From positions 192,001-256,000 of IMG/VR virus record IMGVR_UViG_3300037722_000745: a stretch of DNA of 64,000 bases, one strand, 5' to 3'. The notes under the pieces were generated by a model. It saw only the letters and a program-made list of their open reading frames with translations. It ran no database searches and was not told where the DNA came from. Positions 3,559-57,018 of the stretch are shown one piece after another. The DNA is from a virus. Its lineage: Duplodnaviria > Caudoviricetes. Made by a program: the position numbers and the translations under genes. Position 1 is the first letter of the stretch, and every line of letters begins with the position of its first letter.

Positions 3559-3663
3559 CTTATGCCTCAATGTTTGGTCGCCCCAACCACTGAGTCCGTT
3601 AGACAAGGAGGTTGAGATACGACGTATCAGGTGACAGGCTCAGGCCGACATTGCCAGGTGGTT

Positions 3664-3699
3664 GTCCCACTCTTAATGGAGGTGGGCTTCCGTTGCGAC
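3664..3699 (-). repeat. Solitary full-length family-2 CRISPR repeat
   Basis: gtcccactcttaatggaggtgggcttccgttgcgac, near-identical to the 51755-52009 array repeats; intergenic. Confidence 0.92.
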
Positions 3700-25704: not shown

Positions 25705-26179
25705 GTCTCGCCGCAGCGAGCAATCAGGATCGGTCCCCAGCGGCTGATTCCTGCCGGAGGCAGTCACGCCTACTCCGCGTCTCGCCGCAGCGAGCAATCA
25801 GGATCGGTCCCCAGCTGATCATCACGATTCAGCTGCCGGCATCCGCTTCAAGTCTCGCCGCAGCGAGCAATCAGGATCGGTCCCCAGGACGTCCTCGAGA
25901 TCAACGGCAACGAGTACGACGCGAGGTCTCGCCGCAGCGAGCAATCAGGATCGGTCCCCAGCTACGGCGTCCGACGTGATGAGCGTGGCCGCGAGAACGT
26001 CTCGCCGCAGCGAGCAATCAGGATCGGTCCCCAGCAGCGTGCGAGCTGCGGATCGGTGGCTGCAGCCTTGTGTCTCGCCGCAGCGAGCAATCAGGATCGG
26101 TCCCCAGCTGCAAAAACTGGACTTCGCGTTATATGCCGTCCTCGTCTCGCCGCAGCGAGCAATCAGGATCGGTCCCCAG
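25705..26179 (-). CRISPR. Type V (Cas12j) CRISPR array: 7 repeats, 6 spacers (36-38 nt)
   Basis: Identical 36-nt repeat CTGGGGACCGATCCTGATTGCTCGCTGCGGCGAGAC with 3' hairpin CTCGC/GCGAG, 128 bp downstream of cas12j. Confidence 0.98.
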
Positions 26180-39863: not shown

Positions 39864-40018
39864 GGCCCAGCCACCTATTACACCGATTAGGCTGCCAGCA
39901 AACAACCAAAACGAAGGGATTCGCCCCATCAAAGTGGAATTACTACCACTGTCACGGCGTCCAAATTTTGGTTTGGGATGTCACATGAGGGTTAATTAAA
40001 CACCCTGATTTCAACGAC

Positions 40019-40329: not shown

Positions 40330-40713
40330 CTACCAGACGACGCCCCCACCTCGTTTTTCAAGCCGGCCCGCAGAGACCCGTACAAAGCGATCTAGGCCCG
40401 GTTCGATGAGATGGACCCGCTCCGCAGCACGGAGAACCTCCCCGTCCGCTTGTCCAGCCTGAACCGAGGACGGTACGAGGCGATCTCCAACGAGATAGCC
40501 AACCTGCCTGTGCCACAGGCTTTCTAACTCAGGTTCGGCCAGAGCCTTGACCTGAGCCTTACGTCCCTCCAACGCAAACTCAATCCAGCCATGCTCTACA
40601 GGAAGGCTCCCCTCGATGACCCAGCGACGGGAGCCCGACCGGAGGGACCGGCCCCCAACCCAAGGTGCGACAATCGTCTCACCTTCTTTCTGAAGTAGGG
40701 TCCTCCAAGTCAT
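40330..40713 (-). pseudogene. Truncated paralog of the E2-like gene (N-terminal 127 aa)
   Basis: APWVGGRSLRSG, EHGW, YLVGDRLV and ERVHLIEPGLDRFVRVSAGR shared with the E2-like gene. Confidence 0.8.
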
Positions 40714-43590: not shown

Positions 43591-43635
43591 GATCCACCTC
43601 TCTCGCAACCCTCCGCATGGGAGGGGAATTGCCGC

Positions 43636-43654
43636 GTCTCGCCTCAGCGAGCAA
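43636..43654 (-). repeat. Solitary Cas12j-family repeat (3' 19 nt, CTGAGG loop variant)
   Basis: gtctcgcctcagcgagcaa, 45 nt upstream of the vWA start. Confidence 0.85.
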
Positions 43655-43781
43655 ATTACCGCTAAGGAGGATGACGGCGCCCGTGGTGTCTACTACACCG
43701 AAAAGCCAGAACTCGACCGAGTTAAAGAGAGCGGGTTTTTGCTGGACCCTGGATTCCCCCGGAAGGGCAGGTCGAGTTTAG

Positions 43782-43853
43782 TCGGGGTGACAGGGATCGA
43801 ACCTGCGACCTCTCGCCCCCAAAGCGAGCGCTCTACCACTGAGCAACACCCCG
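43782..43853 (-). tRNA. tRNA-Pro(TGG)
   Basis: Cloverleaf. Confidence 0.9.
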
Positions 43854-43905
43854 AGAAATCTGTTATACGCTGGCTAGACTACGACAACCACGTGCTCCGA
43901 GAGAT

Positions 43906-44136
43906 TTGACCGTGGATCACACCTACGACCGCCGCCCGAAGACCGCCACTGATCGCGAGTTCCAAGAGATGGCCGAGATCTACCTCAAGAAGCTCGGCTA
44001 CTCGCCTAAGCAGGTCCGCAGCTGGACTCGCAACATGGCCCAGGCCATCGAGAAGGCGTTGAAGTCCTCGCGTGAAACTCGCGAAGTTGAATACCATATC
44101 GGTCTCGAAGAGGAAGGCGAGGAACGTCTTCGCTAA
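43906..44136 (+). CDS. Hypothetical protein
   Basis: 76-aa ORF. Confidence 0.5.
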   Translation: MTVDHTYDRRPKTATDREFQEMAEIYLKKLGYSPKQVRSWTRNMAQAIEKALKSSRETREVEYHIGLEEEGEERLR

Positions 44137-44336
44137 CCATCAGACTTCACCCCGGTTCTTCGTTTTCCATACGTTCTGTATCTGTGACACAAGGCGCACA
44201 CCACGTCGCATTTGGCAGCCTCTTCCTTGGTTCGTTTGAGAGAGCCCGTCCTGCTTGCCGAGCCGAGATCGAACGCCTTAGTTCTTGGATCGCGATGATC
44301 GAAGTCCATCGCCCAATACGGATGCGAATACCACGG
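44133..44336 (-). pseudogene. HNH endonuclease fragment fused to a tRNA-Pro(CGG) 5' half
   Basis: MDFDHRDP..KCDVVCALCHRYRT, homologous to 29295-29720. Confidence 0.6.
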
Positions 44337-44377
44337 GTGTTCCCGAAACAGGCGTCCTACCAGTGGACTACACCCCG
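44337..44377 (-). pseudogene. tRNA-Pro(CGG) 5' half
   Basis: CGGGGTGTAGTCCACTGGTAGGACGCCTGTTTCGGGAACA. Confidence 0.65.
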
Positions 44378-44378
44378 G

Positions 44379-44450
44379 TACGCGCAGAAGGATTTGAACC
44401 TTCATTTCTCGCTCATCAGACGAGGGTCCTAACCGTTGGACGATGCGCGC
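44379..44450 (-). tRNA. tRNA-Ile(GAT)
   Basis: Cloverleaf. Confidence 0.88.
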
Positions 44451-44617
44451 GTGGTCTGAAATTATGCTGCAAGCCGGCACAGGTGTTCGTACTACGACCT
44501 ACGCACGGCTCAAGCTCGGAAAGCCAGTTTGAAGAGTATAGCGAGTTTTACCCAAGTTTAGCGTGATCCAGATAAACTCAGGTAAACTCGCTATACTTCC
44601 GCCCCCAAGACGACGAT

Positions 44618-44824
44618 TCAGTCCTTGTCGTCGTCGGAGTCGTCGTTCTTCTTCTTCTTCTTGATGTTCTTCAAAAACTCGGGCGGAAGCTCACCGGCTA
44701 CCCGGATACCAAGGCCCACGAGATCCCGGGCCAGCACCTTGCGGGACGGGCTCTCGGTCTGGGAGTAGGCCAGTAGCTTGCGAAGTTCCGCTTCAAGTTC
44801 ATCGGCCGATGCGATCTTGTTCAT
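44618..44824 (-). CDS. Hypothetical protein
   Basis: 68-aa ORF with RBS. Confidence 0.55.
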   Translation of the reverse strand: MNKIASADELEAELRKLLAYSQTESPSRKVLARDLVGLGIRVAGELPPEFLKNIKKKKKNDDSDDDKD

Positions 44825-45243
44825 GCCTTCACCGGCTCACAAAACGTTCAGCGGACTACTTCCCCTTGGGGGACCAACCTACCCGAAATAACCGATAGGG
44901 CCTCATAGGACTCGATCAATGCCTGTCTGGTAGGGATGGTATAACCTAGCCACACAGACAGGTCTCTTTGGCCCAAACCACCCACGATGCTGAGCAAGTA
45001 AATCACAGCGAGGAAATCGTTCATAGGACCTCTATCCCGCCCGAGTTGTCAGCCCCGCCGCTTGTTCTTGTTGCGGGGCTTCTGTGCCCCACGCTTGACC
45101 CAGCGGCCGGCATTCTCGTTCCGATGGGGCGGGCAGAACGAGCATGACAGATCGACGACCCGCTTGACGCGCTTGTATGTCCGACTGTCGTTCTCTTCCT
45201 TGAGCTGCTGTGCTGCCTTCATGTTGAGCCTCGCTAGGATGGG

Positions 45244-45326
45244 TGCAAGCGGAGGGAGTCGAACCCTCACGGGCTTTCGCCCACAACGACCTCAACGTTG
45301 CGCGTCTGCCATTCCGCCACGCTTGC
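45244..45326 (-). tRNA. tRNA-Leu(GAG)
   Basis: Class II cloverleaf. Confidence 0.9.
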
Positions 45327-45368
45327 AGTAGTATGTCATGGGTTTCTCCCATTCCGTTACTCGTGGCT

Positions 45369-45443
45369 TGGAAGCGGGAGGTGGAGTCGAACCACCGACC
45401 TCGAGCTTATGAGGCTCGCGAGCTGCCACTGCTCCATCCCGCT
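45369..45443 (-). tRNA. tRNA-Met(CAT)
   Basis: Cloverleaf, CCA. Confidence 0.85.
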
Positions 45444-45706
45444 ACGAAAATTCTACGAACTCCGGATCCACCTCGTCGTTGGGGATCGTCGTCAAGAGGG
45501 TCGCGATCGACTTCCGTTGAAGGTCGTTGGTAATATCCTCCAATGTTGGCACCGTACCCCCATCAGCACCAATGAAGATCCTACCGCGACCCCGCTTTCC
45601 GAGTTCCAACCTCCTGCGTTCGCTCGGTTCCACCCAGAAGGTGATGCCCGCGAGGTTGGCTGTGTATGTGATGCGGACTCGTGTCATGCTGAAAAGACTA
45701 CACCAG

Positions 45707-45778
45707 CTCGGGCGCAGGGACTCGAACCCCCGATTAGATGAACCAGAATCACCCGTCCTACCATTAGACGACGCCAGA
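45707..45778 (-). tRNA. tRNA-Gln(CTG)
   Basis: Cloverleaf, one acceptor mismatch. Confidence 0.8.
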
Positions 45779-45786
45779 AAAACGTT

Positions 45787-46044
45787 TCACGCTCCTGAAG
45801 CTCTGCGCTGGACCCGTTTCGACCACGCCTTGAAGCCTCCAACCCTAGCTCCCAGAAGGCTTTTAGCAATGTCGTGGCGACTCGCGCCTACCGCCATCAC
45901 ATGGCGAGGGTAGCCCCTCTGCACCATCACGTAAAAGGGCCTGCGTAGCTGCTGGTAGAAGGCCAGCCGGATCGCTGTCCGCAGATCCTCAGACCGTTCC
46001 TTGCCGTTCGCTCGGCGGATGTACGGCTGGAACTTGCTCCGCAT
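45787..46044 (-). CDS. Hypothetical basic protein (intact paralog of the repeat-interrupted ORF at 46539-46646)
   Basis: MRSKFQPYIRRANGK. Confidence 0.6.
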   Translation of the reverse strand: MRSKFQPYIRRANGKERSEDLRTAIRLAFYQQLRRPFYVMVQRGYPRHVMAVGASRHDIAKSLLGARVGGFKAWSKRVQRRASGA

Positions 46045-46538
46045 GCTAGTTCAACCGTCGCAGCAACAGCGGCACAGGAGCATCGAAGTCCCAGACATGC
46101 TGTGCGTGGCACTTACCGCAGTCGTACTGGACGAACCCCTCCGGGGTGTGCTTGAACGTGGTCGCCTCGTCAGTCACCAGCTCGTTGTTGCACTGCGGGC
46201 AATAGACCCGAGTAAACGTCTGCTGCTTGGGCTTCAACAGGTTTCGCAACCACTGGAACACGTCTGTTATCCTTTGCTCGGGCGGAGGGAGTCGAACCCC
46301 CACGGGCTCGAACGGTGAGGTCCTAAAGGAGGACTATGCTGAGCGCCTGATGGCTCTCTGCGGGACCCCAAAGCTGTTGAGTCCCATCCTGGCTTTCCCA
46401 ATGGCCTCCACCACCTGTTGTATCATGCGCAACCCAGATCCAGCCTGCTTCTTTAAGTCAATGGCCATAGGGTGGAGCTTGAAGGCAGCCCAAGCGAAGT
46501 TGCACAGCTCCTCTTACTGTTACCGCCAAACACCAACT

Positions 46539-46646
46539 TCAATGTTTCCCGCATCGAAGAGCCTTTCGATCCTGTCCCACTCTTGATGGAGGTGGGCTTC
46601 CCTTACCATTTACCCTACGGATGTAGGGCCTGTATTTGTTTCGCAC
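46539..46646 (-). pseudogene. Paralog of 45787-46044 interrupted by a family-2 repeat
   Basis: MRNKYRPYIRRVNGK, then repeat-encoded GSPPPSRVG, then early stop. Confidence 0.65.
46574..46601 (-). repeat. Solitary family-2 repeat (3' 28 nt)
   Basis: 28/28 match to the array repeat. Confidence 0.92.
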
Positions 46647-46649
46647 TAG

Positions 46650-46720
46650 CTCGGGGTGAGAGATTCGAACTCCCGTAAACAGTACCAGAAACTGCTGTCC
46701 TACCATTAGACGAACCCCGA
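46650..46720 (-). tRNA. tRNA-Gln(CTG)
   Basis: Cloverleaf. Confidence 0.88.
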
Positions 46721-46732
46721 AAAACTACCGCC

Positions 46733-46963
46733 TCACGCGCTGCCCGTATAAGCCACGCTGAAAACCATCCCCGACATCACGAGCACTTCCTGGCCGTGAG
46801 TCAAGCTCCCGTTCATCTCGTGGTACTTCTCCCGTAGCTTGCAATGAAACACCACCGTCGGGTTGTACTCCGACTTGAGTTCCGCCAGCTCAACCACATC
46901 CTCGTAGCTCAGAACCTCTGCGTCGGTCTGGAAGTCCTGTCCATTGACTTTGAAACTGGTCAC
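46733..46963 (-). CDS. Multiubiquitin-type Ubl domain protein
   Basis: FKVNG..VLSYEDVVELA..TVVF..GSLTHGQEV..GMVFSV pattern. Confidence 0.65.
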   Translation of the reverse strand: MTSFKVNGQDFQTDAEVLSYEDVVELAELKSEYNPTVVFHCKLREKYHEMNGSLTHGQEVLVMSGMVFSVAYTGSA

Positions 46964-47241
46964 GGTTCCTCCGCGATTCGGGCCAGAACATGCCCATGGC
47001 ACGGATCCGGGACACACCAGCAGCCCAGCACCTTACCACGGAGTTCCTGCTTCACTAGGCGGAGCAACGAAGGCTTACCGCGGATCCAAGTCTCGTACTT
47101 CTCGATAGCTTCCTCACGAGTCGCGACCTTGAACTGTGCCCGAGTGTTCTCTTTGTGGCTGTAAGGATTACCGTAGATCGACGGACGTCCGACGTAGACA
47201 TCGTAGCGATCTCGACGACAATGCACGACCCGAGTGCTCAT
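46960..47241 (-). CDS. DUF4326-family protein
   Basis: DVYVGRPSIYGNPY, ELRGKVLGCWCVPDPCHGHVL. Confidence 0.85.
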   Translation of the reverse strand: MSTRVVHCRRDRYDVYVGRPSIYGNPYSHKENTRAQFKVATREEAIEKYETWIRGKPSLLRLVKQELRGKVLGCWCVPDPCHGHVLARIAEEP

Positions 47242-47327
47242 CCGGCTCCCACTTGAGATATGGACTCAATGGTCTGGGGGACCATTCGGTAGCGTCGTGT
47301 CTTAGGCATGAGATCCACTACACCACT

Positions 47328-47418
47328 TGGCGGAAGGTGAGGGGATCGAACCCTCGCACGCCTCATCAGCGCGACCTCAGATTAGCAATCTGGTGTCTTA
47401 CCACTCGACCAACCTTCC
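47328..47418 (-). tRNA. tRNA-Ser(GCT)
   Basis: Class II cloverleaf, CCA. Confidence 0.9.
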
Positions 47419-47422
47419 AAGG

Positions 47423-47506
47423 CGGAGGATGAGGGACTCGAACCCCCACACGCTTTCACGTACCTCCGATTTCAAATCGGGTGCCTTGCCATTCAGCCAA
47501 TCCTCC
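47423..47506 (-). tRNA. tRNA-Ser(TGA)
   Basis: Class II cloverleaf. Confidence 0.9.
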
Positions 47507-47512
47507 AAAGAG

Positions 47513-47595
47513 CGGAAAGAGAGGGAGTCGAACCCTTGCCGTTGCCGACAACCGGTTTTCGAAGCCGGCGGCCCACCACTGAGCCTTCACCTTCC
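47513..47595 (-). tRNA. tRNA-Ser(CGA) with allo-tRNA-like 8/4 fold
   Basis: 8-bp acceptor (one T-T), 6-bp D stem GGCTCA/TGGGCC with 4-nt loop, 4-bp T stem, G73. Confidence 0.7.
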
Positions 47596-47712
47596 AAGTG
47601 ATGCGATAGCCGCCACGAGTCCCCGTCGGCCACTGCAAACCGGCAGCCCCTGACAGAATCCTCGTTGACGACTTACCCGGGTTTACCCTCGCTCGAATCC
47701 ACACGAGGCGGG

Positions 47713-47786
47713 TGGTGGCGACGAGGGGACTTGAACCCCAGCCGACAGCCTTATGAGAGCCGCGTCCTAACCCGTAGGGCGTCGCC
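47713..47786 (-). tRNA. tRNA-Met/Ile2(CAT)
   Basis: Acceptor GGCGACG/CGTCGCC-ACCA. Confidence 0.8.
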
Positions 47787-48153
47787 GTGGTGGGGCCGAA
47801 GCCCCAAGCACATCACCACCTCCACTGGATGCTGTGCCGATGTGCCCGATCATCAAAGTCATCGTACCTGCCGTGCCAGATCAGTCGGAGTTCCCTGGCT
47901 CGGTGTCCCTTCCAAAAGAACCGCCGGTCATCTCGGGGGCTCCGAGCCGCCCAATTGGAACCTTGGCCTTCCCGATTGGGGCTGTGCCGTCCGTTCTTAC
48001 GTCGATGATTCCGTCGCATGTCGCCTCCAGGTTCAAAGACCTAAAGGCGGCTCTCCTCTCGTGATCAGCATCTTGCTGCTCCTTGTTGGTTTTGACGGTG
48101 GAACGTCGCCAAAAACTCTCTTATAGGGCACCCTGCCTAAGGAGCCCCACCCC

Positions 48154-48489
48154 ATGGATCCCAACCGCATCATCCACAGATACCTAACAGCAGCATCCTC
48201 GGTCATGACGTGGCCAAAGTTAAAAGGCCACCTCATCAAGCTCACTAAACCCGTTTCTGTGAGCAAGGGTAAGCCAGGAAGGAAGAAGGTGAAATTCGAC
48301 AAAGGTGTTACCTTTGTGATGACTGGGGGAGTTGTGAAAGGCACCCTTTTGGAGTCCCACCTCTTTGAAGCCACCCTTGAAGGCGACCATTATTGGATCC
48401 AATCAAACATACATCCCTTTGGGATGTACCCGCATAAATTCATGACAAAAGGCGGTAAGGAACTAGGTCCTGAGTTCTTCGCTCAGTGA
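48154..48489 (+). CDS. Hypothetical protein flanked by 32/33-bp direct repeats
   Basis: 111-aa ORF; repeats at 48051-48083 and 48492-48523. Confidence 0.6.
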   Translation: MDPNRIIHRYLTAASSVMTWPKLKGHLIKLTKPVSVSKGKPGRKKVKFDKGVTFVMTGGVVKGTLLESHLFEATLEGDHYWIQSNIHPFGMYPHKFMTKGGKELGPEFFAQ

Positions 48490-48529
48490 TCCTCTCCTCT
48501 CGTGATCAGATCTTGCTGCTCCTACCTAG

Positions 48530-48603
48530 CGCCTCTGGAAGGATTCGAACCTTCAAGCTTCGGTTTCGTAGACCGACGATCTGTCCAATTGATCTACAGA
48601 GGC
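48530..48603 (-). tRNA. tRNA-Arg(ACG)
   Basis: Cloverleaf. Confidence 0.9.
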
Positions 48604-48618
48604 ATTCGTTTTTAGAGG

Positions 48619-48694
48619 CACCCCCGGGAGGACTCGAACCTCCGCATGACCCGGCTTCGGAGGCCGGCGCTCTGTCCAACTGAGCTACGAGGGC
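48619..48694 (-). tRNA. tRNA-Arg(CCG)
   Basis: Cloverleaf. Confidence 0.9.
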
Positions 48695-48798
48695 TTGTGG
48701 TGATTTGCCATTCGCGTGCGGGATCAACCACCAACCCGTAGACGCACTCGTAGGTCGTTCCTACGCGCAATCACCACGCTACGGTGCCGAAACACCGG

Positions 48799-48871
48799 CA
48801 CTCCCGACAGGACTCGAACCTGCATGATCCTGGTTAGAAGCCAGGCGCCTATCCAGTTAGACTACGGGAGC
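48799..48871 (-). tRNA. tRNA-Arg(TCT)
   Basis: Cloverleaf. Confidence 0.9.
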
Positions 48872-48875
48872 ATTG

Positions 48876-48911
48876 GTCTCACTCTAGAGGGAGGTGAGCT
48901 TCCCTCGCAAC
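48876..48911 (-). repeat. Solitary family-2 repeat variant
   Basis: gtctcactctagagggaggtgagcttccctcgcaac, 29/36 to the array-type repeat with compensatory stem CTCAC/GTGAG; 4 nt upstream of tRNA-Arg(TCT). Confidence 0.8.
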
Positions 48912-48944
48912 TACAACACACCGAAGGCACGCCGGCAGAGCCTT

Positions 48945-49022
48945 TGGAGGCGCAGGCGGGACTCGAACCCACGAAAATACCTGTTTTGCAGACAGGCCCC
49001 TTAGCCGCTTGGGTACTGCGCC
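48945..49022 (-). tRNA. tRNA-Cys(GCA)
   Basis: Cloverleaf, U73-CCA. Confidence 0.9.
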
Positions 49023-49067
49023 GAAACCTTCACCTACTAGAAGACGAGAACGCCGAAGCGTTACAAG

Positions 49068-49138
49068 TGCGCGTGGAGGGGATCGAACCCTCATCTGCTG
49101 GGTGGAAGCCAGCTATCCTACCATTGAACGACACACGC
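49068..49138 (-). tRNA. tRNA-Gly(TCC)
   Basis: Cloverleaf. Confidence 0.85.
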
Positions 49139-49214
49139 TTATGCCCCGTAGTTGGCGGCCTCCCAAGGCAAAAGTCAGAACTCACAAGGCGGCGGAAGCT
49201 GTACTTCTCTCAGC

Positions 49215-49442
49215 TTAGGAGGTCTTTGTGTGTCTTTTGTACTGACCGGAATTGGCTCCGTATTCACGTTTGATCCAATTAGCAGGTCCTATTTTCAAGG
49301 CACCCTTGACTTGGCCCGAGTTCGCACCGAACTCTTTCTTGATCCACGCCAAGGCTTTAGCGTCTTGTTCCTTCGTATGCGCTGCTGTTCGAAGAGCTAG
49401 CTCGACAAGCTTCGTAGCAATTTCGACCCTACTGGGATTCAC
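49215..49442 (-). CDS. Hypothetical protein with internal repeat
   Basis: WIKKEFGANSGQVK / WIKREYGANSGQYK. Confidence 0.55.
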   Translation of the reverse strand: MNPSRVEIATKLVELALRTAAHTKEQDAKALAWIKKEFGANSGQVKGALKIGPANWIKREYGANSGQYKRHTKTS

Positions 49443-50051
49443 GCCTTGGCTGTAGGCAAGAATTTAACGAAGCTCAGACTGTAACTCTTGAGGGGTCGAA
49501 ATTTTGCGCATAACACCATAGAAAAGCCATAAATGGCTTAGCAGCTTACCTTGAAGGCTGGCACCCAGGACATCGAACTCGAAGCTTATGGGGAGCAACC
49601 CCACATGGAAAGAGTGTTCGGGATCCTCTGCGCATGCTCGGGCCAATCCTTGAACTTGTCGCCGTAGTTCTCTCGACACAACCGAGTGATCGCGATGTGA
49701 GAACTGAGACACACAGACATGATCTTACGCGTCTCCCTGGCACTCAATCCAGAAGCCGTAGGCCCAGACCTCCACAGAGCCGACAACTCCTCCTCACTAA
49801 GAGGAGCTTCCAGACTCCCTCCCAAATCGGACAAGGAAGCGTCAATATCCGCTGTAGAGGCCATCTCTCGGGTTTTTGATTGTGTTTCTGATGGGCGGAA
49901 TATACACCGCAGGCAGCATGCCCCCGAGCGCCCAAAGCGGAAGCCGGAGAACTCGAATCCCAAACGACCCCGAGAGGCCGTTCCCACCGCTTTCCAAGCG
50001 GGTCCAGTCCCTAACTGGTTCAGCTTCCAAGGGGAGCCTGTTGAGGGAATC

Positions 50052-50158
50052 GTCTCGCCGCAGCGAGCAATGAGTGCATGACTACACCAAGCCAACAAGC
50101 GCTGATGGAAGCAGGCCAGTTGCGTGACTACGTAGTGGACCTGTCGGGAGTTGAACCC
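50052..50158 (-). repeat. 107-bp duplication (copy A) ending in a 20-nt Cas12j-family half repeat
   Basis: 2 mismatches versus 51439-51545. Confidence 0.9.
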
Positions 50159-50212
50159 CGATCCCGGTTACCACCGTACCAAGGTGGTGCTCTGCCACTG
50201 AGCTATACGGGC
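50136..50212 (-). pseudogene. Chimeric tRNA: Thr(GGT) 5' part plus Ala(TGC) 3' end
   Basis: GCCCGTA does not pair with CAGGTCC; T arm and 3' end match 51520-51545. Confidence 0.7.
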
Positions 50213-50547
50213 GTTGAACCGAAAGACAACCCTCTCTCTAGCTTGCCTCCTAGACTCCATATCGCGTAAGGCATGCCTCAGAATTTGAAGGTTGACGATC
50301 GCATCGTAAAGCTCCCGCTCCTTCGCTCCGCTGTCTATAAGCCTCTCTAGTTTATCGATCTCTCGTCGGATCCGATTCCGATCTTGCAAACGCTTAGGGA
50401 GCCGCAAGCCTGTGGTCCGATCCTGACGCTCAACCTTCCTAAGTTGCTGCTCGATATAGTCCACCTCTTTTGGGGTCAAGGATCGAGGCAGTAGTCCAGG
50501 CCGAGGGAAAGTCACCTCAAAAGGACGGTCCGGTTTGGGTACCGGCA

Positions 50548-51054
50548 TCAGATCTGACCTAACACCTTTCGAACCAACCGCATGAACGTCAGTCCAGCGA
50601 GTTCAGGATCTGTGCTGAATGCGGTCTCCGTGATAGACCGTTTGAAGTCAGCTCCGCTCAAGGGTTTGTGAGGCACATACCCGAACGAAAGTAACGGAAG
50701 ACCGCCCCGGATTGACAACATCAACGTGAAGGTCTCCAAAGCGGGTCGAGTGGAGAAGTAGTAGTACAGCTTCATCCGCTGCTGGGTAGCATTCATGTAG
50801 AAACGATCGCCATGGAACTTCCGCCTGAATGCTGAAAGGGCCTTGGGTAAGAGGATCTCGATAGACAACTTGGCCGCATCAAAGACCTCTTGCGCAGACG
50901 TTGGCACCCCGACTTCAGGAGGACCCCAACGAGCTTGCCGGGCCATCCTCTCGGACCACGGAACGACCCATGACGGGATTTCCGGCTGCCAGTCCCCAAG
51001 GGCTACCTGGTAACCCCACCTGGCCGCCACGCGCTTTGCAAGAGTACCCATCAC
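50548..51054 (-). CDS. Hypothetical protein
   Basis: 168-aa ORF with N-terminal AKRVAARW. Confidence 0.6.
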   Translation of the reverse strand: MMGTLAKRVAARWGYQVALGDWQPEIPSWVVPWSERMARQARWGPPEVGVPTSAQEVFDAAKLSIEILLPKALSAFRRKFHGDRFYMNATQQRMKLYYYFSTRPALETFTLMLSIRGGLPLLSFGYVPHKPLSGADFKRSITETAFSTDPELAGLTFMRLVRKVLGQI

Positions 51055-51084
51055 CTCGTGCAGTGTGATGGGTAGATTAGTGAG

Positions 51085-51158
51085 GCTACCTGACGGGACT
51101 CGAACCCGCTCTCACCGGACCCACAATCCGGCCGCCATCCTATCGGCGCTCAGGCAGC
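51085..51158 (-). tRNA. tRNA-His(GTG)
   Basis: G-1:C73, loop TT-GTG-GG. Confidence 0.8.
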
Positions 51159-51258
51159 AGAAGTATCACAACGGTCCCGGGCCGGGTGCGACGAGCTAGC
51201 CACACGCGCCGAGTAGCTAGCTCGGACGCGCTGCGTTCTGTGCCCCGTTGTGACACGG

Positions 51259-51341
51259 TGCGAACGAGAGGAGTCGAACCTCCACGACCTCGCGATCAGC
51301 TGGGTTTGAGCCAGCCGCGTCTGCCATTCCGCCACGTTCGC
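51259..51341 (-). tRNA. tRNA-Leu(CAA)
   Basis: Class II cloverleaf. Confidence 0.9.
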
Positions 51342-51355
51342 GTGAGCACTACTCA

Positions 51356-51391
51356 GTCTCGCTCTTAGGGGAGGCGAGCTTCCTTTGATCC
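51356..51391 (-). repeat. Solitary family-2 repeat variant
   Basis: gtctcgctcttaggggaggcgagcttcctttgatcc; stem CTCGC/GCGAG. Confidence 0.78.
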
Positions 51392-51438
51392 CATACAGGA
51401 AATCCTTCTTGCAAGCTACGGTGCTGGAGACAGGAGTC

Positions 51439-51545
51439 GTCTCGCCGCAGCGAGCAATGAGTGTATGACTACACCAAGCCAACAAGCGCTGATGGAAGCA
51501 GGCCAGTTGCGTGACTACGTGGTGGACCTGTCGGGAGTTGAACCC
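51439..51545 (-). repeat. 107-bp duplication (copy B) ending in a 20-nt Cas12j-family half repeat
   Basis: See copy A. Confidence 0.9.
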
Positions 51546-51591
51546 GCAAACTCTCCTTGCAAGGGAGAGCCCTGACCCGTCAGACAAGCCC
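51520..51591 (-). tRNA. tRNA-Ala(TGC)
   Basis: G3:U70, CCA, atypical D arm. Confidence 0.75.
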
Positions 51592-51596
51592 ATTTA

Positions 51597-51676
51597 GGTC
51601 CGAGGCGAATTGTCGACTCCGCGTCTCCAGCTTCCGTACGCAATAGCTGGCGCTCTAACACTGAGCTACTCGAACC
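51597..51676 (-). other. tRNA-like element with 12-nt anticodon loop and degenerate T loop
   Basis: Acceptor GGTTCGAG/CTCGGACC; stem CCAGCT/AGCTGG around ATTGCGTACGGA. Confidence 0.5.
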
Positions 51677-51678
51677 AG

Positions 51679-51750
51679 CGGAGCCGAGGGGACTCGAACC
51701 CCCCTCACTGGCGTGACAAGCCAGCCGCCTCACCCGATGCGTACGGCTCC
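51679..51750 (-). tRNA. tRNA-Asp(GTC)
   Basis: Cloverleaf, G73. Confidence 0.85.
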
Positions 51751-51754
51751 GTAA

Positions 51755-52009
51755 GTCCCACTCTTGATGGAGGTGGGCTTCCGTTGTGACCGTGCGGATT
51801 TCGGAGATGACGCTGAAGCCGTCATCGGTCCCACTCTTGATGGAGGTGGGCTTCCGTTGTGACTTCGCTCCGATCGCAATCCCGCAGGATCGCGACCAGC
51901 CGTCCCACTCTTGATGGAGGTGGGCTTCCGTTGCTGCCAGGCAGGACGGCTCGAAGTGGCTAAGATGATGTTGGTCCCACTCTTGATGGAGGTGGGCTTC
52001 CGTTGCTGC
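51755..52009 (-). CRISPR. Second CRISPR array (family 2): 4 repeats, 3 spacers (36-38 nt), no adjacent cas gene
   Basis: 36-nt repeat GTCAC/GCAGC-AACGGAAGCCCACCTCCATCAAGAGTGGGAC; leader-like region 52010-52160. Confidence 0.95.
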
Positions 52010-52356
52010 AGTGCGCTCAAAAAGACCTAAAATTTCCAAAGAGCTGAGAGCCGGATTGCGAGAGCCTCTGCAAACTCCCGCTAAATCCGACTCCATGGAG
52101 AGTACTACACTGTTCACAGAGAGCGCAAGACCCTAAATTCATTGTCTTGCGAGCGATCCCCGGGCTCCAGGCGTCACCGAGGCTCTCGCGTTCCGATGCC
52201 GTCCAACAAGGAAACTCCACGTCCCGGCGAAGAGTTGAGAGCATGGGCAGTACCGTGCCCACAAGGGCCAGTCCTCTCGCTCAACCCCGCGAAGTCGAGC
52301 TGTTTCAGGAATGTGACACGGGTTTTGGTTGATGCTGGCCAAACATGACTACCCAG

Positions 52357-52432
52357 TGGAGCCGGCGGGGATCGAACCCGCCGCAAAGCCGCATTGCAAG
52401 TGCAGCTCGCCCCCGCCAACCGATACGGCTGA
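52357..52432 (-). pseudogene. Degenerate tRNA-Ala(TGC)
   Basis: T arm and anticodon intact, 5' end eroded. Confidence 0.55.
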
Positions 52433-52440
52433 GGGGTATC

Positions 52441-52833
52441 TCACCGAAGAGATGACGGCTCATAAAGTGTCAATAGCTCCTTTGCCCAATCTACGAGGTC
52501 CGACACCCTCGCGCCGGTAGGTTGCGGACTTCGCCACAACTCCAGGTTGCACGGTCTGTTGTCGTCCCTAACCCCGTTCTTGTGGTGTACCGTCTCACCC
52601 GGCAAGAGATAGCGGCCAAGGACTTCCTCCATCACAAGGATGTGCTCAAACACGTACGGACCGCTTGTAGCCCTAGGGTGCAGCGGAACTCGCCGCATCA
52701 CGTATCGAATCGGATCGCCGCACCCAAGGCAGGGTACCTTTGGGAGAGATCGCCGCCGACACATCGGGCATTTCCGATGTCTGCTACTTGGTGTGAAAAG
52801 TCTGCAACACGAGCTACAAGTTTTGACAGCCAT
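52441..52833 (-). CDS. HNH homing endonuclease
   Basis: YVFEHILVMEEVLGRYL..VHHKNGVRDDNRPCNLELW. Confidence 0.85.
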   Translation of the reverse strand: MAVKTCSSCCRLFTPSSRHRKCPMCRRRSLPKVPCLGCGDPIRYVMRRVPLHPRATSGPYVFEHILVMEEVLGRYLLPGETVHHKNGVRDDNRPCNLELWRSPQPTGARVSDLVDWAKELLTLYEPSSLR

Positions 52834-52896
52834 TAGTCACCGAGACAGTCTCGGCGTGCAGGGTACACCACGTGCAGGTTGCCATCTTCGTACCCT

Positions 52897-53295
52897 TGGA
52901 CTCGGTGGGAATCGAACCCACGTCCTAGAAAGCTATCGAACAGCGTCTACGTGCGTAGCGTGACTTCGGACTCGGTTAAGGTCGTGCCCATGCCTCACGC
53001 CGGCTTCCACCTGGGGCGTGACTGGTTTTCCAGTCTTGCCTCCACCACCGATCTAGCGACCTAAGGTCTTGCGACCCGTTTCCCACAGCCAATCGGACTC
53101 TGTGGTGCAGCCCTGCGTTTACTTACGCCGCTCGAAATCGAAGCAGGGAATCTACCCCGAGCGACGGCTCAGGCAGCCTGAGCAAAGCCGTTATAGTTGG
53201 CTTTTCTTGTTTGGTCGGCTTGATAACCCGGCCTGCTGACCAACCGGGGCACGCTGCTGCTCGAATTACCTCCCAGTCGAAACCTTTACGAGCCC
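52897..53295 (-). ncRNA. ssrA: tmRNA
   Basis: GGGCTCG/CGAGTCC-A with G3:U70, GGTTTCGAC 5' motif, T arm; tag frame ends ANYNGFAQAA-stop. Confidence 0.92.
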
Positions 53296-53322
53296 TAAAT
53301 CTGTCATCGCATACACCAAAAG

Positions 53323-53399
53323 TCTGGAGCCCCTTCCCGGAATCGAACCGAGTTATCTGGTTTACAAGACCAGCGCATCACCAACTATGCTTAAGGGGC
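53323..53399 (-). tRNA. tRNA-Thr(TGT)
   Basis: Cloverleaf, CCA. Confidence 0.9.
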
Positions 53400-53625
53400 T
53401 TAGCTACGCCAGCAGAAAACGCTAGAGTTCTCACACCGGTCCGCACTCTAGCAGCGGCCCTACATACCCCGGGCCGCCAGCCTAGCTTGGCAGCCCACCA
53501 GGGGCCTGGTGTCAGGCGGGACGCCGTCCGAATACCTCAGAGCTTTTGACCGGGCTAGAGAGCCCAAGATGAGGGTCATCGTTCAGCATCGACCGGTGGA
53601 GAAAATGGTAGCGACGGAGGGAGTC

Positions 53626-53647
53626 GTCTCGCCTCAGCGAGCAATCA
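53626..53647 (-). repeat. Solitary Cas12j-family repeat (3' 22 nt) fused to a tRNA 3' end
   Basis: gtctcgcctcagcgagcaatca; followed on the minus strand by GACTCCCTCCGTCGCTACCA. Confidence 0.88.
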
Positions 53648-53683
53648 AGTTGGCGGCCACCGCCAAAAGCCCCGTAAAGTTTA

Positions 53684-53828
53684 GCCCGCGTTCGAGATGA
53701 GCGACCTGGTTAGCGATTGCTTGTTTTCCGAACAAGTGCGTTTGCCAGTTACGCCACAAAGGCCGGACGGCCTTCGACGGGACTCGAACCCGCATATGCA
53801 TGTAAGATCGTTCTGGCGGAACGCGAGC
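53684..53828 (-). ncRNA. Circularly permuted tRNA-like RNA (YrlA-like Y RNA candidate)
   Basis: Terminal helix GCTCGCGTTC/GAACGCGGGC enclosing T arm, loop-closed acceptor stem, D arm and anticodon-like arm. Confidence 0.7.
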
Positions 53829-53961
53829 TGGTGGGGAGTCTTGGAGTCGAACCAAGTTTGCTTGTAAGCGCCGCTGGCGGCTCCCTTGCGGGAGCGAGAG
53901 GCAGTGCTGGAGTATCGCTTTCGATTTACCGTCGAAATAGAGGCCAACCCTCCTACTCCCC
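53829..53961 (-). ncRNA. Tyr-like tRNA with about 60-nt variable-region insert (Y-RNA-like family, copy 2)
   Basis: GGGGAGT/ACTCCCC-ACCA, loop CG-GTA-AA, insert with GCAA hairpin, CGCCAG and CTTACAAGC. Confidence 0.65.
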
Positions 53962-54068
53962 AGATGCCGGTGCTCACCACACCACCGTCGTCAACGCAAG
54001 GGACCGGCGCCCCTGTGAAGCTCTCTGGCGATGATGCAGTACCCTCTCTAATACACCAAAGAAGGCGG

Positions 54069-54140
54069 AGCAGGTAGAGGGAATCGAACCCTCGCCTCCA
54101 GCTTGGCAAGCTGGCATCCTACCGACTGGACGATACCTGC
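54069..54140 (-). tRNA. tRNA-Gly(GCC)
   Basis: Cloverleaf. Confidence 0.9.
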
Positions 54141-54141
54141 A

Positions 54142-54216
54142 TGGTCGGGGTGGCGGGAGTCGAACCCGCGACCTTCTGTCCCCCAGACAGACGCCCTTCC
54201 ACTGAGCTACACCCCG
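54142..54216 (-). tRNA. tRNA-Pro(GGG)
   Basis: Cloverleaf, CCA. Confidence 0.9.
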
Positions 54217-54236
54217 TTGTTTGGTTGCGGGAGCCG

Positions 54237-54264
54237 GTCTCGCTCTTTCAGGTGGCGAGCTACC
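54237..54264 (-). repeat. Degenerate solitary family-2 repeat between duplicated tRNA-fMet 3' ends
   Basis: 24/28 to the 54941 variant; 14-bp direct repeat at 54224-54237 and 54281-54294. Confidence 0.72.
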
Positions 54265-54281
54265 ACGGTTTTTCAAACCAG

Positions 54282-54353
54282 TTGCGGGAGCCGGAATCGA
54301 ACCGACGAGGCTTGGGTTATGAGCCCGAGTTGAGGGCCAACACTCTTCCCGCG
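54282..54353 (-). tRNA. Initiator tRNA-fMet(CAT)
   Basis: C1xA72 mismatch, GGG/CCC anticodon stem. Confidence 0.85.
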
Positions 54354-54354
54354 G

Positions 54355-54427
54355 TGGCCAGAGAGGGAATCGAACCCCCGACGCCTTCATCTTCAGCGAA
54401 GCGCTCTACCAACTGAGCTATCTGGCC
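54355..54427 (-). tRNA. tRNA-Phe(GAA)
   Basis: Cloverleaf. Confidence 0.9.
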
Positions 54428-54431
54428 GTTG

Positions 54432-54472
54432 TGGTGGGTCCTCTCGGGATCGAACCGAGTTCTCCGATTTTT
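54432..54472 (-). pseudogene. tRNA 3' half (from the anticodon loop to CCA) fused to a repeat
   Basis: AAAAATCGG-AGAA-CTCGG-TTCGATC-CCGAG-AGGACCC-ACCA. Confidence 0.75.
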
Positions 54473-54508
54473 GTCTCACTCTTGTAGGGGGTGAGCTTCC
54501 CTTACTCC
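54473..54508 (-). repeat. Solitary family-2 repeat variant
   Basis: gtctcactcttgtagggggtgagcttccctt; stem CTCAC/GTGAG. Confidence 0.78.
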
Positions 54509-54535
54509 CCACTGGCCTACTAGCCAACCACTCAG

Positions 54536-54607
54536 TGCTCCTACGGGGAATCGAACCCCGGCCGCCGGGGTGAAAACCCAGCATCCTGACCACTAGACGA
54601 TAGGAGC
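54536..54607 (-). tRNA. tRNA-Glu(TTC)
   Basis: Cloverleaf. Confidence 0.88.
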
Positions 54608-54609
54608 GT

Positions 54610-54685
54610 TGGCGTCCCTACAGAGATTTGAACTCTGGTTTCCAGATTGAGAATCTGGCGTCCTGGCCGACTAGACGATAGGGAC
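54610..54685 (-). tRNA. tRNA-Glu(CTC)
   Basis: Cloverleaf, CCA. Confidence 0.9.
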
Positions 54686-54686
54686 G

Positions 54687-54762
54687 TGGAGCCCGCGATC
54701 GGGATCGAACCGACTACCTCCTGCGTACGAAGCAGGCGCCCTACCTTCAGGGCCTCACGGGC
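54687..54762 (-). tRNA. tRNA-Thr(CGT)
   Basis: Cloverleaf, CCA. Confidence 0.88.
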
Positions 54763-54826
54763 AAAGCGTGGCGAGCCTTCGGGGCCTCTTACACAGATCG
54801 CCGTACAGACGATGCGACCACACTAG

Positions 54827-54895
54827 CAGGCCGGCAGGGAATCGAACCCTGTCCTACGGATTTGGAGTCCGTTTGGCTTCCTTAGCCCCCGACCT
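54827..54895 (-). tRNA. tRNA-Trp(CCA)
   Basis: Compact cloverleaf. Confidence 0.8.
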
Positions 54896-54940
54896 AGATT
54901 TATCTCGCTCTTCCGCCAGCCAAGGCATACACGCATTGCT

Positions 54941-54976
54941 GTCTCGCTCTTGAAGGAGGCGAGCTTCCTTTGCGAG
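54941..54976 (-). repeat. Solitary family-2 repeat variant
   Basis: gtctcgctcttgaaggaggcgagcttcctttgcgag, nearly identical to the copy inside the E2-like gene. Confidence 0.85.
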
Positions 54977-55008
54977 AGTCCTGCCACACCGTCTGATTAA
55001 ACGCCTCT

Positions 55009-55084
55009 TGGCTCCAGGGGAGGGACTCGAACCCCCATCTTTCCGGTTAACAGCCGGACGCATTACCATTAGTGCTACCCTGGA
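55009..55084 (-). tRNA. tRNA-Asn(GTT)
   Basis: Cloverleaf, CCA. Confidence 0.9.
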
Positions 55085-55310
55085 ATATGACAGGTGGGGA
55101 CCCCGAAGCCTTAGGAGCCGCAAGGCCCCCACCATCGGCGAGATGATCCCCGCTACAGAGCCGCTCCCCGAAGGTCGCGGGTACCGCGTGCGAGGCTACA
55201 TTCGCCGCACCGAATTCCTATTCAGTTGTCATAGAGCTGTAGGTGCTTCCACGGGACCTGTGTCCCGAAGTGCTTTCGCCCCCTCCATTGGAGGCGCTCT
55301 TTCGCACCAG

Positions 55311-55382
55311 TGGGTGGCATGGGAATCGAACCCACCTGTGCCTGATTAAGAGTCAGGTGCATCGCCTTGATGCTAACCACCC
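55311..55382 (-). tRNA. tRNA-Lys(CTT)
   Basis: Cloverleaf. Confidence 0.88.
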
Positions 55383-55588
55383 GCTGTCTTCGCCTGGATG
55401 AGAGCCAACAGCTCGTCGAGCAACTCATCGTCCGCGTAGAGAAGTCGGACTAGGATCTGTTTCTGTGTCACCTTGCCTTTCGCGTCCTTCGTGTGGCGGA
55501 CCACGCAGCCGTTGTCGAAGTAGACCACCTGCTCGGTGAGTCGATCTTCATCCGCGTTGTCCAGTCGTCGTTCGTTCAGAACCCTCAT
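55373..55588 (-). CDS. Hypothetical protein
   Basis: 71-aa ORF between tRNAs. Confidence 0.5.
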   Translation of the reverse strand: MRVLNERRLDNADEDRLTEQVVYFDNGCVVRHTKDAKGKVTQKQILVRLLYADDELLDELLALIQAKTAGG

Positions 55589-55595
55589 GCGTCGT

Positions 55596-55672
55596 TGGTG
55601 GGGCCGACAGGAATCGAACCTGCAACCGTCGAGTTAAAAGCTCGCTGCTCTGCCTGGTTGAGCTACGGCCCC
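55596..55672 (-). tRNA. tRNA-Lys(TTT)
   Basis: Cloverleaf, CCA. Confidence 0.9.
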
Positions 55673-55747
55673 AGAAGGGTCTTCGGAGTCGTAGCTACGT
55701 TTGAGTCGAGAAGTCATCGTTCGCTTACATTCATCGTTCGCTGACTT

Positions 55748-55829
55748 TGGTGGGAGTGGAGGGAATCGAACCCCCTGCGCCTTTCGACAACCGGTTTACA
55801 GCCAGTCTCCCGTCCATCGGGTCACTCCC
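55748..55829 (-). tRNA. tRNA-Tyr(GTA)
   Basis: Class II cloverleaf, CCA. Confidence 0.88.
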
Positions 55830-55917
55830 ATGAGTTGGTTGGAGAGTGAGCCTCGATAGCTTTCGTGGATGGGCTTTGTACGTGGGCTGATCATGTGAAA
55901 TCCTTGGTCCAGAAACG

Positions 55918-55948
55918 AAAAAAGCCACCTGGGTTTTCCCTAGGCGGC
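55918..55948 (-). terminator. Intrinsic terminator or attenuator hairpin upstream of the tRNA cluster
   Basis: GCCGCCTAGG-GAAAAC-CCAGGTGGC-TTTTTT. Confidence 0.6.
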
Positions 55949-56331
55949 CTTCGTCATGCACAGAGTGTGAGTCAACGAGAGTCCGCCTAAGTATCCGCCT
56001 CCGGGTTCTGATTGCGGCGCGTAAACGCGGAGGCTTCGACATGGGTCGTAGGCTTAATGGCGCCTGCATAACCGAGTCTCCCAAAGCCCAGTCCCAGGAC
56101 ACGCCACGACCCCGACAAGGCTTTGCCTTGCTCGAAGCGTGCTGGTGTTGAAGTCCGGGACATCATGTCGATCACTCTGGTTTGGACTGTCGTTCTTTGG
56201 GGCCGTTGTCGGTGGGTTATGAACCCAACACGAGCTGACCGTTCTACCTTCCTACGGTCTACAAGAGGAAAGTGCAACCGTCCTCGCGTCGAATTCGGAT
56301 CTTTTTCTCCGAACCTCGAGAACTCAACCAC

Positions 56332-56941
56332 TTACGGTGTGATGCCTACTTGAAGGTATGTGAGGGTACCGAGAAAATCTGGGTTGCCTTCACCAAACCC
56401 AGAGCGAAGCGTGTTGAGTCGGTCTGCCAACCACCCAAAAGTGGGATCTGCATCCCACGTGCCCGGGTAAGATACCCCCTTGAAGTCCGTGAAGCGGATG
56501 TACTCCCCGCTAGCAACCGGAGCTGTCGAGTCCCACGCCAGACGGATCTGCAAACGCGTCCCCTCCGCGATGGCATCCCCTGAGCCCGCCAACGAGTTGA
56601 CCGCCGTACTACCTCCGGTGCTGTTGAAGATAGCACACTCGGGCCGGTTGGAGTCGTCCATGTCGATCCGGATCTTGCCTCCATTGCCGACCAACTCCAT
56701 CACCGTGCTCCCCGCCCCCAACGCTGGGGCGACAACCTCAACCTCGATAATTCCTCGGATCCCAGGATGATCGATCGCAGTAGCGCCTACTCGCCTAGTT
56801 GTCACCAACAACCCCGGAAGCGACCTGAAGGTGGTCCCTGGAGGGGTGTTCAGGCTGTTAGACCCAGAACTAACGAGTGCTGGATCCATCACTAGGCCCG
56901 TCGGGTAGAGAATGTGGGAGTGGTCGGGGATGTTTGGCATA
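56332..56941 (-). CDS. Hypothetical beta-rich protein (possibly structural)
   Basis: ORF from MPNIPDH. Confidence 0.55.
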
Positions 56942-57018
56942 ATCGGCTGAGCCTCGTAATTAGGAGCAAGACGGTATACCAAGCCATCCTCAAAAGTTCT
57001 TTTGCTATCGCGTAGGCA

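Follow-up and report, generated by a model that had tools for sequence, protein, structure and literature searches.

A predicted type V-M CRISPR array in the tRNA cluster of a huge phage and dispersed solitary copies of its repeat

Introduction

The described systems closest to the locus reported here are the type V-M CRISPR (clusters of regularly interspaced short palindromic repeats) systems, represented by MmCas12m2, GoCas12m, and MsCas12m (Wu 2022, PMC10442227, PMC11013384). DNA binding by characterized Cas12m proteins blocks transcription or replication without cutting (PMC10442227, PMC11013384), and non-canonical RuvC triads are typical of Cas12m clades (Omura et al., PMC10442227). The Cas12m2 structure contains a 36-nt repeat whose 8-nt loop and 6-bp stem are enclosed by a G(-23)•A(-2) pair (PMC10442227), and this handle plan matches the layout of a repeat that forms a short array in the transfer RNA (tRNA) cluster of a huge phage. 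The window analyzed is a stretch of 64,000 nt, bases 192001-256000 of the 323,174-bp IMG/VR phage record IMGVR_UViG_3300037722_000745, which has a CheckV completeness of 68%; coordinates are window positions unless marked as genome positions. The locus shares with V-M systems a 36-37-nt repeat with a GTNRCAA start, a G ahead of a 5-6-bp stem, a large loop, and a 3' AC. It has no adaptation genes nearby, and the studied V-M systems need no trans-activating CRISPR RNA. The linked effectors of two related phages match Cas12m/Cas12u1 models and have non-canonical RuvC triads. The locus differs in that the array has no gene beside it and lies inside a phage tRNA cluster, its loop motif CTCC...AAGA is specific to this phage group, and the handle is dispersed as many solitary units. 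The proteins linked to the repeat in the relatives are phage-borne and have ~670-794 aa compared to ~577-614 aa for solved Cas12m.

Two other kinds of viral element are relevant. The Cas12j (CasPhi, type V-J) arrays of huge phages (PMC8298400) are likewise phage-borne, lack cas1/cas2, and have a 36-nt repeat with an equal period that ends in a 3' hairpin and AC with a G•A closing pair. The array described here differs from them by an 11-nt rather than a 4-nt loop, GAAG rather than ATTG before the stem, 13 nt rather than 20 nt 5' of the stem, and a different effector family in the relatives. Viral solitary repeat units are isolated repeats carried by viruses at sites remote from cas genes (Faure 2019 as cited in PMC10651486; Camara-Wilpert 2023, PMC10651486); they often follow a promoter, and the tested ones are competitive inhibitors, that is, RNA anti-CRISPRs (PMC10651486). 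The single repeats found in this phage group resemble them in location, in that some directly follow a promoter (contig L090 and phage G005, below), and in their ability in principle to bind a Cas protein without giving a guide. They are unlike them in copy number (at least 10 per genome, with compensatory stem variants), in placement (many in the tRNA operon, some in open reading frames (ORFs)), and in that the cognate effector co-occurs in one relative, G015, and no host system was identified.

The array and its repeat class

The array and its immediate surroundings contain the following features.
51755-52009, minus strand: V-M-type CRISPR array with four repeats and three spacers; covariance model scores 56-57 bits; aligns with Cas12m repeats
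52010-52160, minus strand: array leader, homologous to the leader of the Cas12m-linked array in the related phage L086/L088
51678-51750, minus strand: tRNA-Asp gene, starting 4 nt past the last array repeat

The 36-nt repeat occurs four times on the minus strand, at 51755-51790, 51828-51863, 51902-51937, and 51974-52009, and shuffled versions of the window (n = 100) gave a mean of 0 repeat matches. Read on the minus strand it is GTCACAACGGAAG-CCCAC-CTCCATCAAGA-GTGGG-AC, a 5-bp stem with an 11-nt loop and a 3' AC, and the predicted fold (-8.6 kcal/mol) has two inner pairs beyond this stem. All four copies agree at 31 of the 36 positions; GCAGC is at the 5' end of the leader-proximal pair and GTCAC at that of the distal pair. 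They enclose three unique spacers of 36 nt (51938-51973), 38 nt (51864-51901), and 37 nt (51791-51827) with no self-match within the genome, and a repeat recurs every 72-74 nt, as it does in the Cas12j array of the same phage. At least three near-identical direct repeats of 23-50 nt with unique spacers of similar length define a CRISPR array in the generic sense, and the locus has this form. An Rfam search of 43000-57000 at a permissive threshold placed no CRISPR-DR or other family on the array. The surrounding tRNA cluster (32.4-55.9 kb) holds 42 tRNA genes and one transfer-messenger RNA gene, all on the minus strand.

These data bear out a preliminary description of the locus, made from the sequence alone, as a second CRISPR array inside the tRNA cluster that has a 36-nt repeat with two 5' end variants, is distinct from the Cas12j array, and has no adjacent cas gene. 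Its label "cas-less" holds for the 323-kb record, which is 68% complete. That description was confined to the array; the repeat also occurs outside it as at least 10 solitary copies.

The repeat class was assigned by comparison with the published Ms, Tf, and Ap Cas12m CRISPR RNA sequences (Table S5 of Bigelyte et al., PMC11013384). The units of this phage align with the three Cas12m repeats column for column, sharing the 5' GTNRCAA, the G before the stem, the 5-bp stem, a long loop ending in AA(A/G)A, and the AC. Identity to the published repeats is 21-24 of 37 positions; Cas12j-type repeats reach global scores of 14-15.5. A set of 20 sequences that includes relatives and the published repeats has 16 compensatory stem cells, and none of 500 shuffles attains its covariation score. 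The repeat thus has the V-M plan of GTNRCAA, a G•A-closed 5-6-bp stem, an 8-11-nt loop, and AC within 36-37 nt. The preliminary description had likened it to Cas12j repeats, but all five Cas12j-associated repeats, from this phage and four orthologous loci, have ATTG or ATGG ahead of a 5-bp stem, a 4-nt loop, and AC. With GAAG before the stem and an 11-nt loop, the second-array repeat falls outside type V-J. By these alignments the repeat class is V-M, not V-J, and the cognate effector class is predicted to be a phage-borne Cas12m-like protein.

The classification called for in the preliminary description therefore leads to a known subtype. A well-known host subtype was to have signified an ordinary hijack of a host system; the subtype is known, but the repeat adjoins phage-borne effectors and is in no scanned host genome, so the sequences do not show an ordinary host hijack. 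A strict repeat pattern had no match in prokaryote genomes of 185,579 species, although exact patterns can miss diverged repeats. Matches to a two-unit pattern in the same species were discarded, as they were only lysine-rich coding repeats without hairpins, and three repeat-pattern scans of IMG/VR returned nothing or only non-hairpin look-alikes.

Linkage of the repeat to Cas12m-like genes

A metagenome scan for the repeat yielded four contigs. L086 and L087/L088 are one related phage, with 50-70% amino-acid identity by tblastx and synteny with 110.6-119.7 kb of this genome. Its array, which has a leader, comprises at least eight units with 15-53-nt spacers and is followed by a T5orf172 gene and a 794-aa ORF, P0013. 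P0013 has no Pfam hit. Against solved Cas12m structures in the PDB it matched 23vw (E = 4e-24), UnCas12m4a (6e-8), and Cas12m2 (5e-3), and it matched the PADLOC model for Cas12u1, the former name of Cas12m, with E = 1e-44. A full HMMER search with P0013 gave 2361 relatives, 132 of them below 1e-30. A Cas12m-like profile of 39 family members matched one of 35 related huge-phage records, G015 (E = 7e-176). After the G015 gene come two leaders, nearly identical to each other, and arrays with a 36-nt repeat of the same type, GTAACAAAGGATG-CTACG-...-TGTAG-AC. The RuvC positions of the aligned family are mostly N, mostly K, and D, and the first position in G015 is D. Thus, the repeat class is linked to Cas12m-like genes in two related huge phages. 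Type V effectors are sporadic in the phage group: Cas12j is in none of 31 relatives, and the Cas12m-like gene among them is only in G015.

The preliminary description had left the effector as another phage type V protein, the same Cas12j, or a hijacked host system. The linkage in two related phages and the alignment with Cas12m repeats favor the first of these and specify its class as Cas12m-like.

Several features of the related loci were also recorded. The duplicated G015 leader (L060:591-738 and 1238-1385) is 148 nt long with 97% identity between copies, and the main G015 array (L060:1482-1894) contains an exact 200-nt internal duplication. In L086 the final 100 nt of the Cas12m-like ORF contain two V-M-type units 15 nt apart (L086:7377-7454, minus strand), which could let the protein act on its own messenger. 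Two contigs come from an AT-rich phage group. One has a unit in frame within a DnaJ-kinase ORF (L089:7433-7468, minus strand), and the other has two units that abut without a spacer immediately behind a near-consensus TTGACT...TAATAT promoter-like pair (L090:3485-3552, minus strand). A 358-aa TnpB/Cas12f-like gene in L090 was rejected as an effector; it is 6.4 kb from the units and looks ordinary. Single V-M-like units of ~30 bits occur after a TTGACA box in the complete 437-kb phage G005 (147348-147383, plus strand) and in the Cas12j-bearing contig G034 (35771-35806, minus strand), both of which are without a Cas12m-like gene.

The array leader

The 150 nt 5' of the first repeat are homologous to the L088 leader, as expected for a CRISPR leader. 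The alignment of this leader with that of the L086/L088 array has z = 8.6, a value reached by none of 1000 shuffles. A local alignment with the leader of the phage's own Cas12j array gives z = 2.8, matched by 16 of 1000 shuffles. Motifs common to the two leaders had been pointed out in the preliminary description; a short block, CTCGCAAT-CGGCT, is indeed present ~50 nt ahead of the first repeat in both, but the overall likeness is statistically marginal. No sigma-70 consensus promoter was found in 51200-52500, the sole stretch scanned, which covers the array and the solitary unit at 51356.

A 27-nt block of the array leader (GTACTACAC-GTTCACAGAGAGCGCAAG, 52103-52129) has one other copy, which precedes a degenerate unit at genome 297913. 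Its orientation relative to the repeats is opposite at the two places. A partial copy, CAAGAGTGGGAC, lies 12 nt past the degenerate unit (genome 297884-297975; L013:13885-13976, plus strand).

Solitary units of the repeat

Solitary copies, at least 10 in number, are at 3664, 39583, 46574, 48876, 51356, 54237, 54473, and 54941 in the window and at genome 49877, 286415, and 297913. Those in the window are as follows.
3664-3699, minus strand: solitary unit with one loop change and 5' GTCGC, between ORFs 3775-4623 and 2671-3606; 58 bits
39583-39618, minus strand: solitary unit inside ORF 38913-39932; 54.6 bits
46574-46609, minus strand: solitary unit, stem CCCAC/GTGGG, 39 nt 3' of tRNA-Gln; 54.3 bits
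48876-48911, minus strand: solitary V-M-type unit, stem CTCAC/GTGAG, 4 nt 5' of tRNA-Arg(tct); 51.9 bits
51356-51391, minus strand: solitary unit, stem CTCGC/GCGAG, 14 nt 5' of tRNA-Leu(caa); 48.8 bits
54237-54266, minus strand: diverged solitary unit CTCGC-CACCTGAAAGA-GCGAG-AC, between tRNA-Met and tRNA-Pro; 16.6 bits, weak
54473-54508, minus strand: solitary unit, stem CTCAC/GTGAG, loop CCCCTACAAGA, 45 nt 5' of tRNA-Phe; 50 bits
54941-54976, minus strand: solitary unit, stem CTCGC/GCGAG, 45 nt 5' of tRNA-Trp; 56 bits

A structure-only search of the genome, with any 5-bp stem, a loop of C-Y-Y-C...AGA, and a final AC, returned exactly 12 sites, and GGAAG precedes the stem in all 12 though it was not demanded. 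With the covariance model built from these sites, 13 sites reach 44.7-58 bits and a further one 28 bits, over a background of at most 20 bits. At least 10 units outside the array are in the 44.7-58-bit range and thus qualify as solitary repeat units. In 35 other huge-phage records the best score with this first model is at most 20.9 bits.

The units have three stem forms, CCCAC/GTGGG, CTCGC/GCGAG, and CTCAC/GTGAG. Within the phage's own units 97% of the stem cells are paired and 7 carry compensatory changes; the covariation score was reached by none of 500 shuffles, and sliding the partners abolishes pairing. The loop CTCC...AAGA and the 5' GGAAG are invariant in units that otherwise differ at up to nine positions. 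Because the stems vary by compensating pairs, the RNA hairpin is, as judged from its sequence variation, under selection. A reading of the GGA/CCUCC motifs as CsrA sites or anti-Shine-Dalgarno elements was dropped; homology to Cas12m repeats accounts for the motifs, and there is no supporting covariation.

Every unit is co-oriented with the local genes, and eight of the 12 loci are in the 23-kb tRNA cluster, ~7% of the record. A tRNA follows by 4 nt both the unit at 48876 (tRNA-Arg) and the last array repeat (tRNA-Asp). Handles and tRNAs on one transcript, which RNase P and RNase Z would separate, are also a feature of the polycistronic tRNA-guide RNA arrays reportedly engineered by Xie et al. 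in 2015; the arrangement here is natural, and a role of tRNA processing in it is putative. The unit at 54473 is separated from tRNA-Phe by 45 nt (54428-54472, minus strand) that resemble a tRNA 3' half with T arm, acceptor strand, and CCA.

The unit at 39583 substitutes for ~49 nt of the paralogous ORF 40330-40713, which indicates that it entered a coding sequence; the 61 nt after the unit are 98% identical to the end of that paralogue. The pseudo-spacer of this unit has a match, which was rejected as a target since it is a segment of the paralogous gene. The pseudo-spacers behind the other units, 11 of 12, have no matching target. This distinguishes the units from the cr-like regulatory RNAs and mini-arrays (Shmakov 2023, bioRxiv 10.1101/2023.03.03.530964), whose known cases lie within cas loci and have spacers partly matching cas promoters, whereas here the units are genome-wide. 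The two share stand-alone repeats conserved beside arrays, and the L086 pair in the 3' end of the cas12m-like ORF is such a case.

A wider model found solitary and back-to-back units at seven places outside the CRISPR locus of G015, with a covarying stem CTGTG/CACAG. G015 has both an effector gene and scattered units, so dispersal accompanies possession of the effector.

The array and units might instead be without function today, either as decaying remains of a Cas12m locus that has been lost or as a selfish hairpin mini-element. The array is short and has neither an effector nor a detected target, units lie inside ORFs (39583 and the L089 kinase gene), and the unit at genome 297913 is degenerate with a partial second copy. 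Decay is difficult to reconcile with the near-identity of the array repeats, with stems that change by compensating pairs only around a fixed loop and 5' GGAAG, and with the common orientation of the units and their concentration in the tRNA cluster. We consider a functionless relic very improbable.

The Cas12j system of the same phage

The Cas12j locus of the record has the following features.
26308-28464, minus strand: cas12j, the record's sole intact gene for a type V effector; Pfam TNB domain (Cas12f1-like) and PADLOC type V hits
25705-26179, minus strand: Cas12j array of seven 36-nt repeats ending ATTG-CTCGC-TGCG-GCGAG-AC, listed for contrast

The cas12j product has eleven homologues of 700-790 aa with 33-50% identity. 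The protein alone as an IMG/VR query gave no relatives, and the alignment of its homologues gave four orthologous Cas12j loci in other huge phages.

This Cas12j could process the second repeat and use it as an alternative handle. No other type V effector in the record is intact, both arrays combine 36-nt repeats with a 72-74-nt period, and a weak leader block is common to the two. Both handles have a G ahead of the stem and end in stem-AC, positions at which, in Cas12j3, G(-17) pairs with A(-2) and C(-1) makes a contact (PMC8298400), and the exact Cas12j stem CTCGC/GCGAG is present in three or four solitary units. However, the five Cas12j-linked repeats all have the 4-nt loop and ATTG/ATGG, whereas the 11-nt loop and GAAG are conserved here. 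Four other Cas12j phages score at most 20.9 bits with the first model, and the wider model adds only the single 30-bit unit of G034. The repeat type travels with Cas12m-like genes, and the G015 record is without Cas12j. Use by Cas12j is possible but weaker as a reading than V-M, and we regard it as improbable.

Solitary handles of the Cas12j type also occur. Those at 50052, 51439, and genome 11450 have a common 5' extension, GGTGTAGTCAYRCACTC, unlike the 5' half of the array repeat. Others are at 2554/2624 (a mini-array), 32976, 36545, 43636, and 53626.

Effector content of the record and proposed mechanism

The search of the genome for RuvC/TnpB-like or Cas genes that had been suggested for this locus returned only cas12j and a broken IS607 tnpB. 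The IS607-type tnpB was rejected as the array effector; it has an in-frame TAG, is beside a serine recombinase, and is 4-6 kb from any unit. The element (genome 292779-294580; L013:8779-10580, minus strand) has a MerR-helix-turn-helix serine recombinase followed by the TAG-broken tnpB, the record's only RuvC gene besides cas12j.

Taken together, the sequence comparisons suggest that the locus is probably an orphan V-M array with dispersed V-M handles, served by a Cas12m-like DNA binder, which either is provided in trans or has its gene in the third of the genome that the record lacks. This reading is based on the repeat class, the effector linkage in two relatives, the leader homology (z = 8.6), the selected hairpin, the company of solitary units and effector in G015, and the specificity of the covariance model (44.7-58 versus at most 20.9 bits). 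Complete relatives with terminal repeats are 436-448 kb, so about one third of this genome may be missing, and we infer that this phage has access to a Cas12m-like protein.

A minus-strand transcript of the array would arise either from the array's leader or within the tRNA operon. The precursor would be cut within each repeat to give products in which a 5' handle, made of the repeat's 3' part, precedes the spacer. The predicted handle has a G•A-closed 5-bp stem, an 11-nt loop, and the terminal AC. A Cas12m-like protein would bind it, and the spacer would direct binding to matching DNA. The simplest source of the protein would be a gene in the missing third of the genome; a host or co-infecting phage would be the alternative. 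The solitary units may give the same protein additional places to bind or process phage transcripts, chiefly the tRNA precursor. Where a tRNA follows a unit by 4 nt, the presumed RNase P cleavage would release a guide-less handle.

Several results weigh against this proposal. No Cas12m-like gene is in the 323 kb: tblastn with P0013 gave a best E = 0.12, and the family profile matched only the zinc-ribbon end of a TnpB. A cas12m gene beside the array is found in the relatives L086 and G015 and is absent here, and at the position of the L086 locus, past the stretch syntenic to 119.7 kb, this phage has no such locus. The spacers have no target in the phage's own genome, 31 relatives, INPHARED, or IMG/VR (two exact 22-mers), so activity of the array is putative only. 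The RuvC residues of P0013 are R-E-D, with an R at the first position, the triad of the family is mostly N/K/D, and the mode of precursor cutting is unsettled even in studied Cas12m. The G...AC closing elements common to the V-M-type units and the Cas12j handles make cross-use by Cas12j possible.

The same absence of a Cas12m effector gene fits a different role, in which the phage itself lacks Cas12m. The solitary units would then be guide-less handle mimics, like Racr RNA anti-CRISPRs, that titrate the Cas12m of the host or a rival phage, and the four-repeat array would re-arm the foreign protein against competitors. The two units 4 nt before a tRNA, from which RNase P would leave a handle without a guide, the spacerless L090 pair just after near-consensus -35/-10 elements, and the unit of the complete G005 after a TTGACA box without cas12m all fit this role, as does the precedent of promoter-linked viral solitary units that act as competitive inhibitors. 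Against it, G015 has the effector gene and scattered units, so the units need no foreign target; the repeat type is by pattern in none of the 185,579 prokaryote species, within the reach of exact patterns; and the record is only 68% complete. A decoy role for the solitary units is a live rival to the orphan V-M reading, and the decoy and re-arming scheme as a whole is rather unlikely.

Implications

The question of the effector for this array is answered at the level of class, with a type V-M repeat and a predicted Cas12m-like effector. Members of one phage group have different type V systems, Cas12j here and Cas12m-like genes in G015 and L086, and a single genome can combine one system's array with another's effector. 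What is new is the solitary dispersal, with at least 10 units and compensatory stem changes in this phage and a similar scatter in G015; a Cas12m handle can apparently become dispersed over a phage genome while its fold is maintained by selection. If the units bind a Cas12m-like protein, they would constitute a layer of phage gene control or a new class of RNA anti-CRISPR against a binding-only effector. The large phage-borne Cas12m-like proteins, with their varied RuvC triads, are a pool of candidate programmable DNA binders.

A broader idea is offered tentatively. The Cas12m handle might be a general RNA tag in this huge-phage group, planted as a conserved hairpin of dozens of nucleotides in tRNA precursors, 5' leaders, and reading frames, where a phage or foreign Cas12m-like protein would be titrated or would cut or mark phage transcripts. 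In this phage, perhaps without the protein, RNase P might free tRNA-linked guide-less decoys, which would amount to a natural tRNA-driven RNA anti-CRISPR factory against a DNA-binding, non-cutting effector.

An additional tRNA was detected by Rfam (33.7 bits) at 51597-51675 on the minus strand, between tRNA-Asp and tRNA-Ala; it is not in the ARAGORN list.
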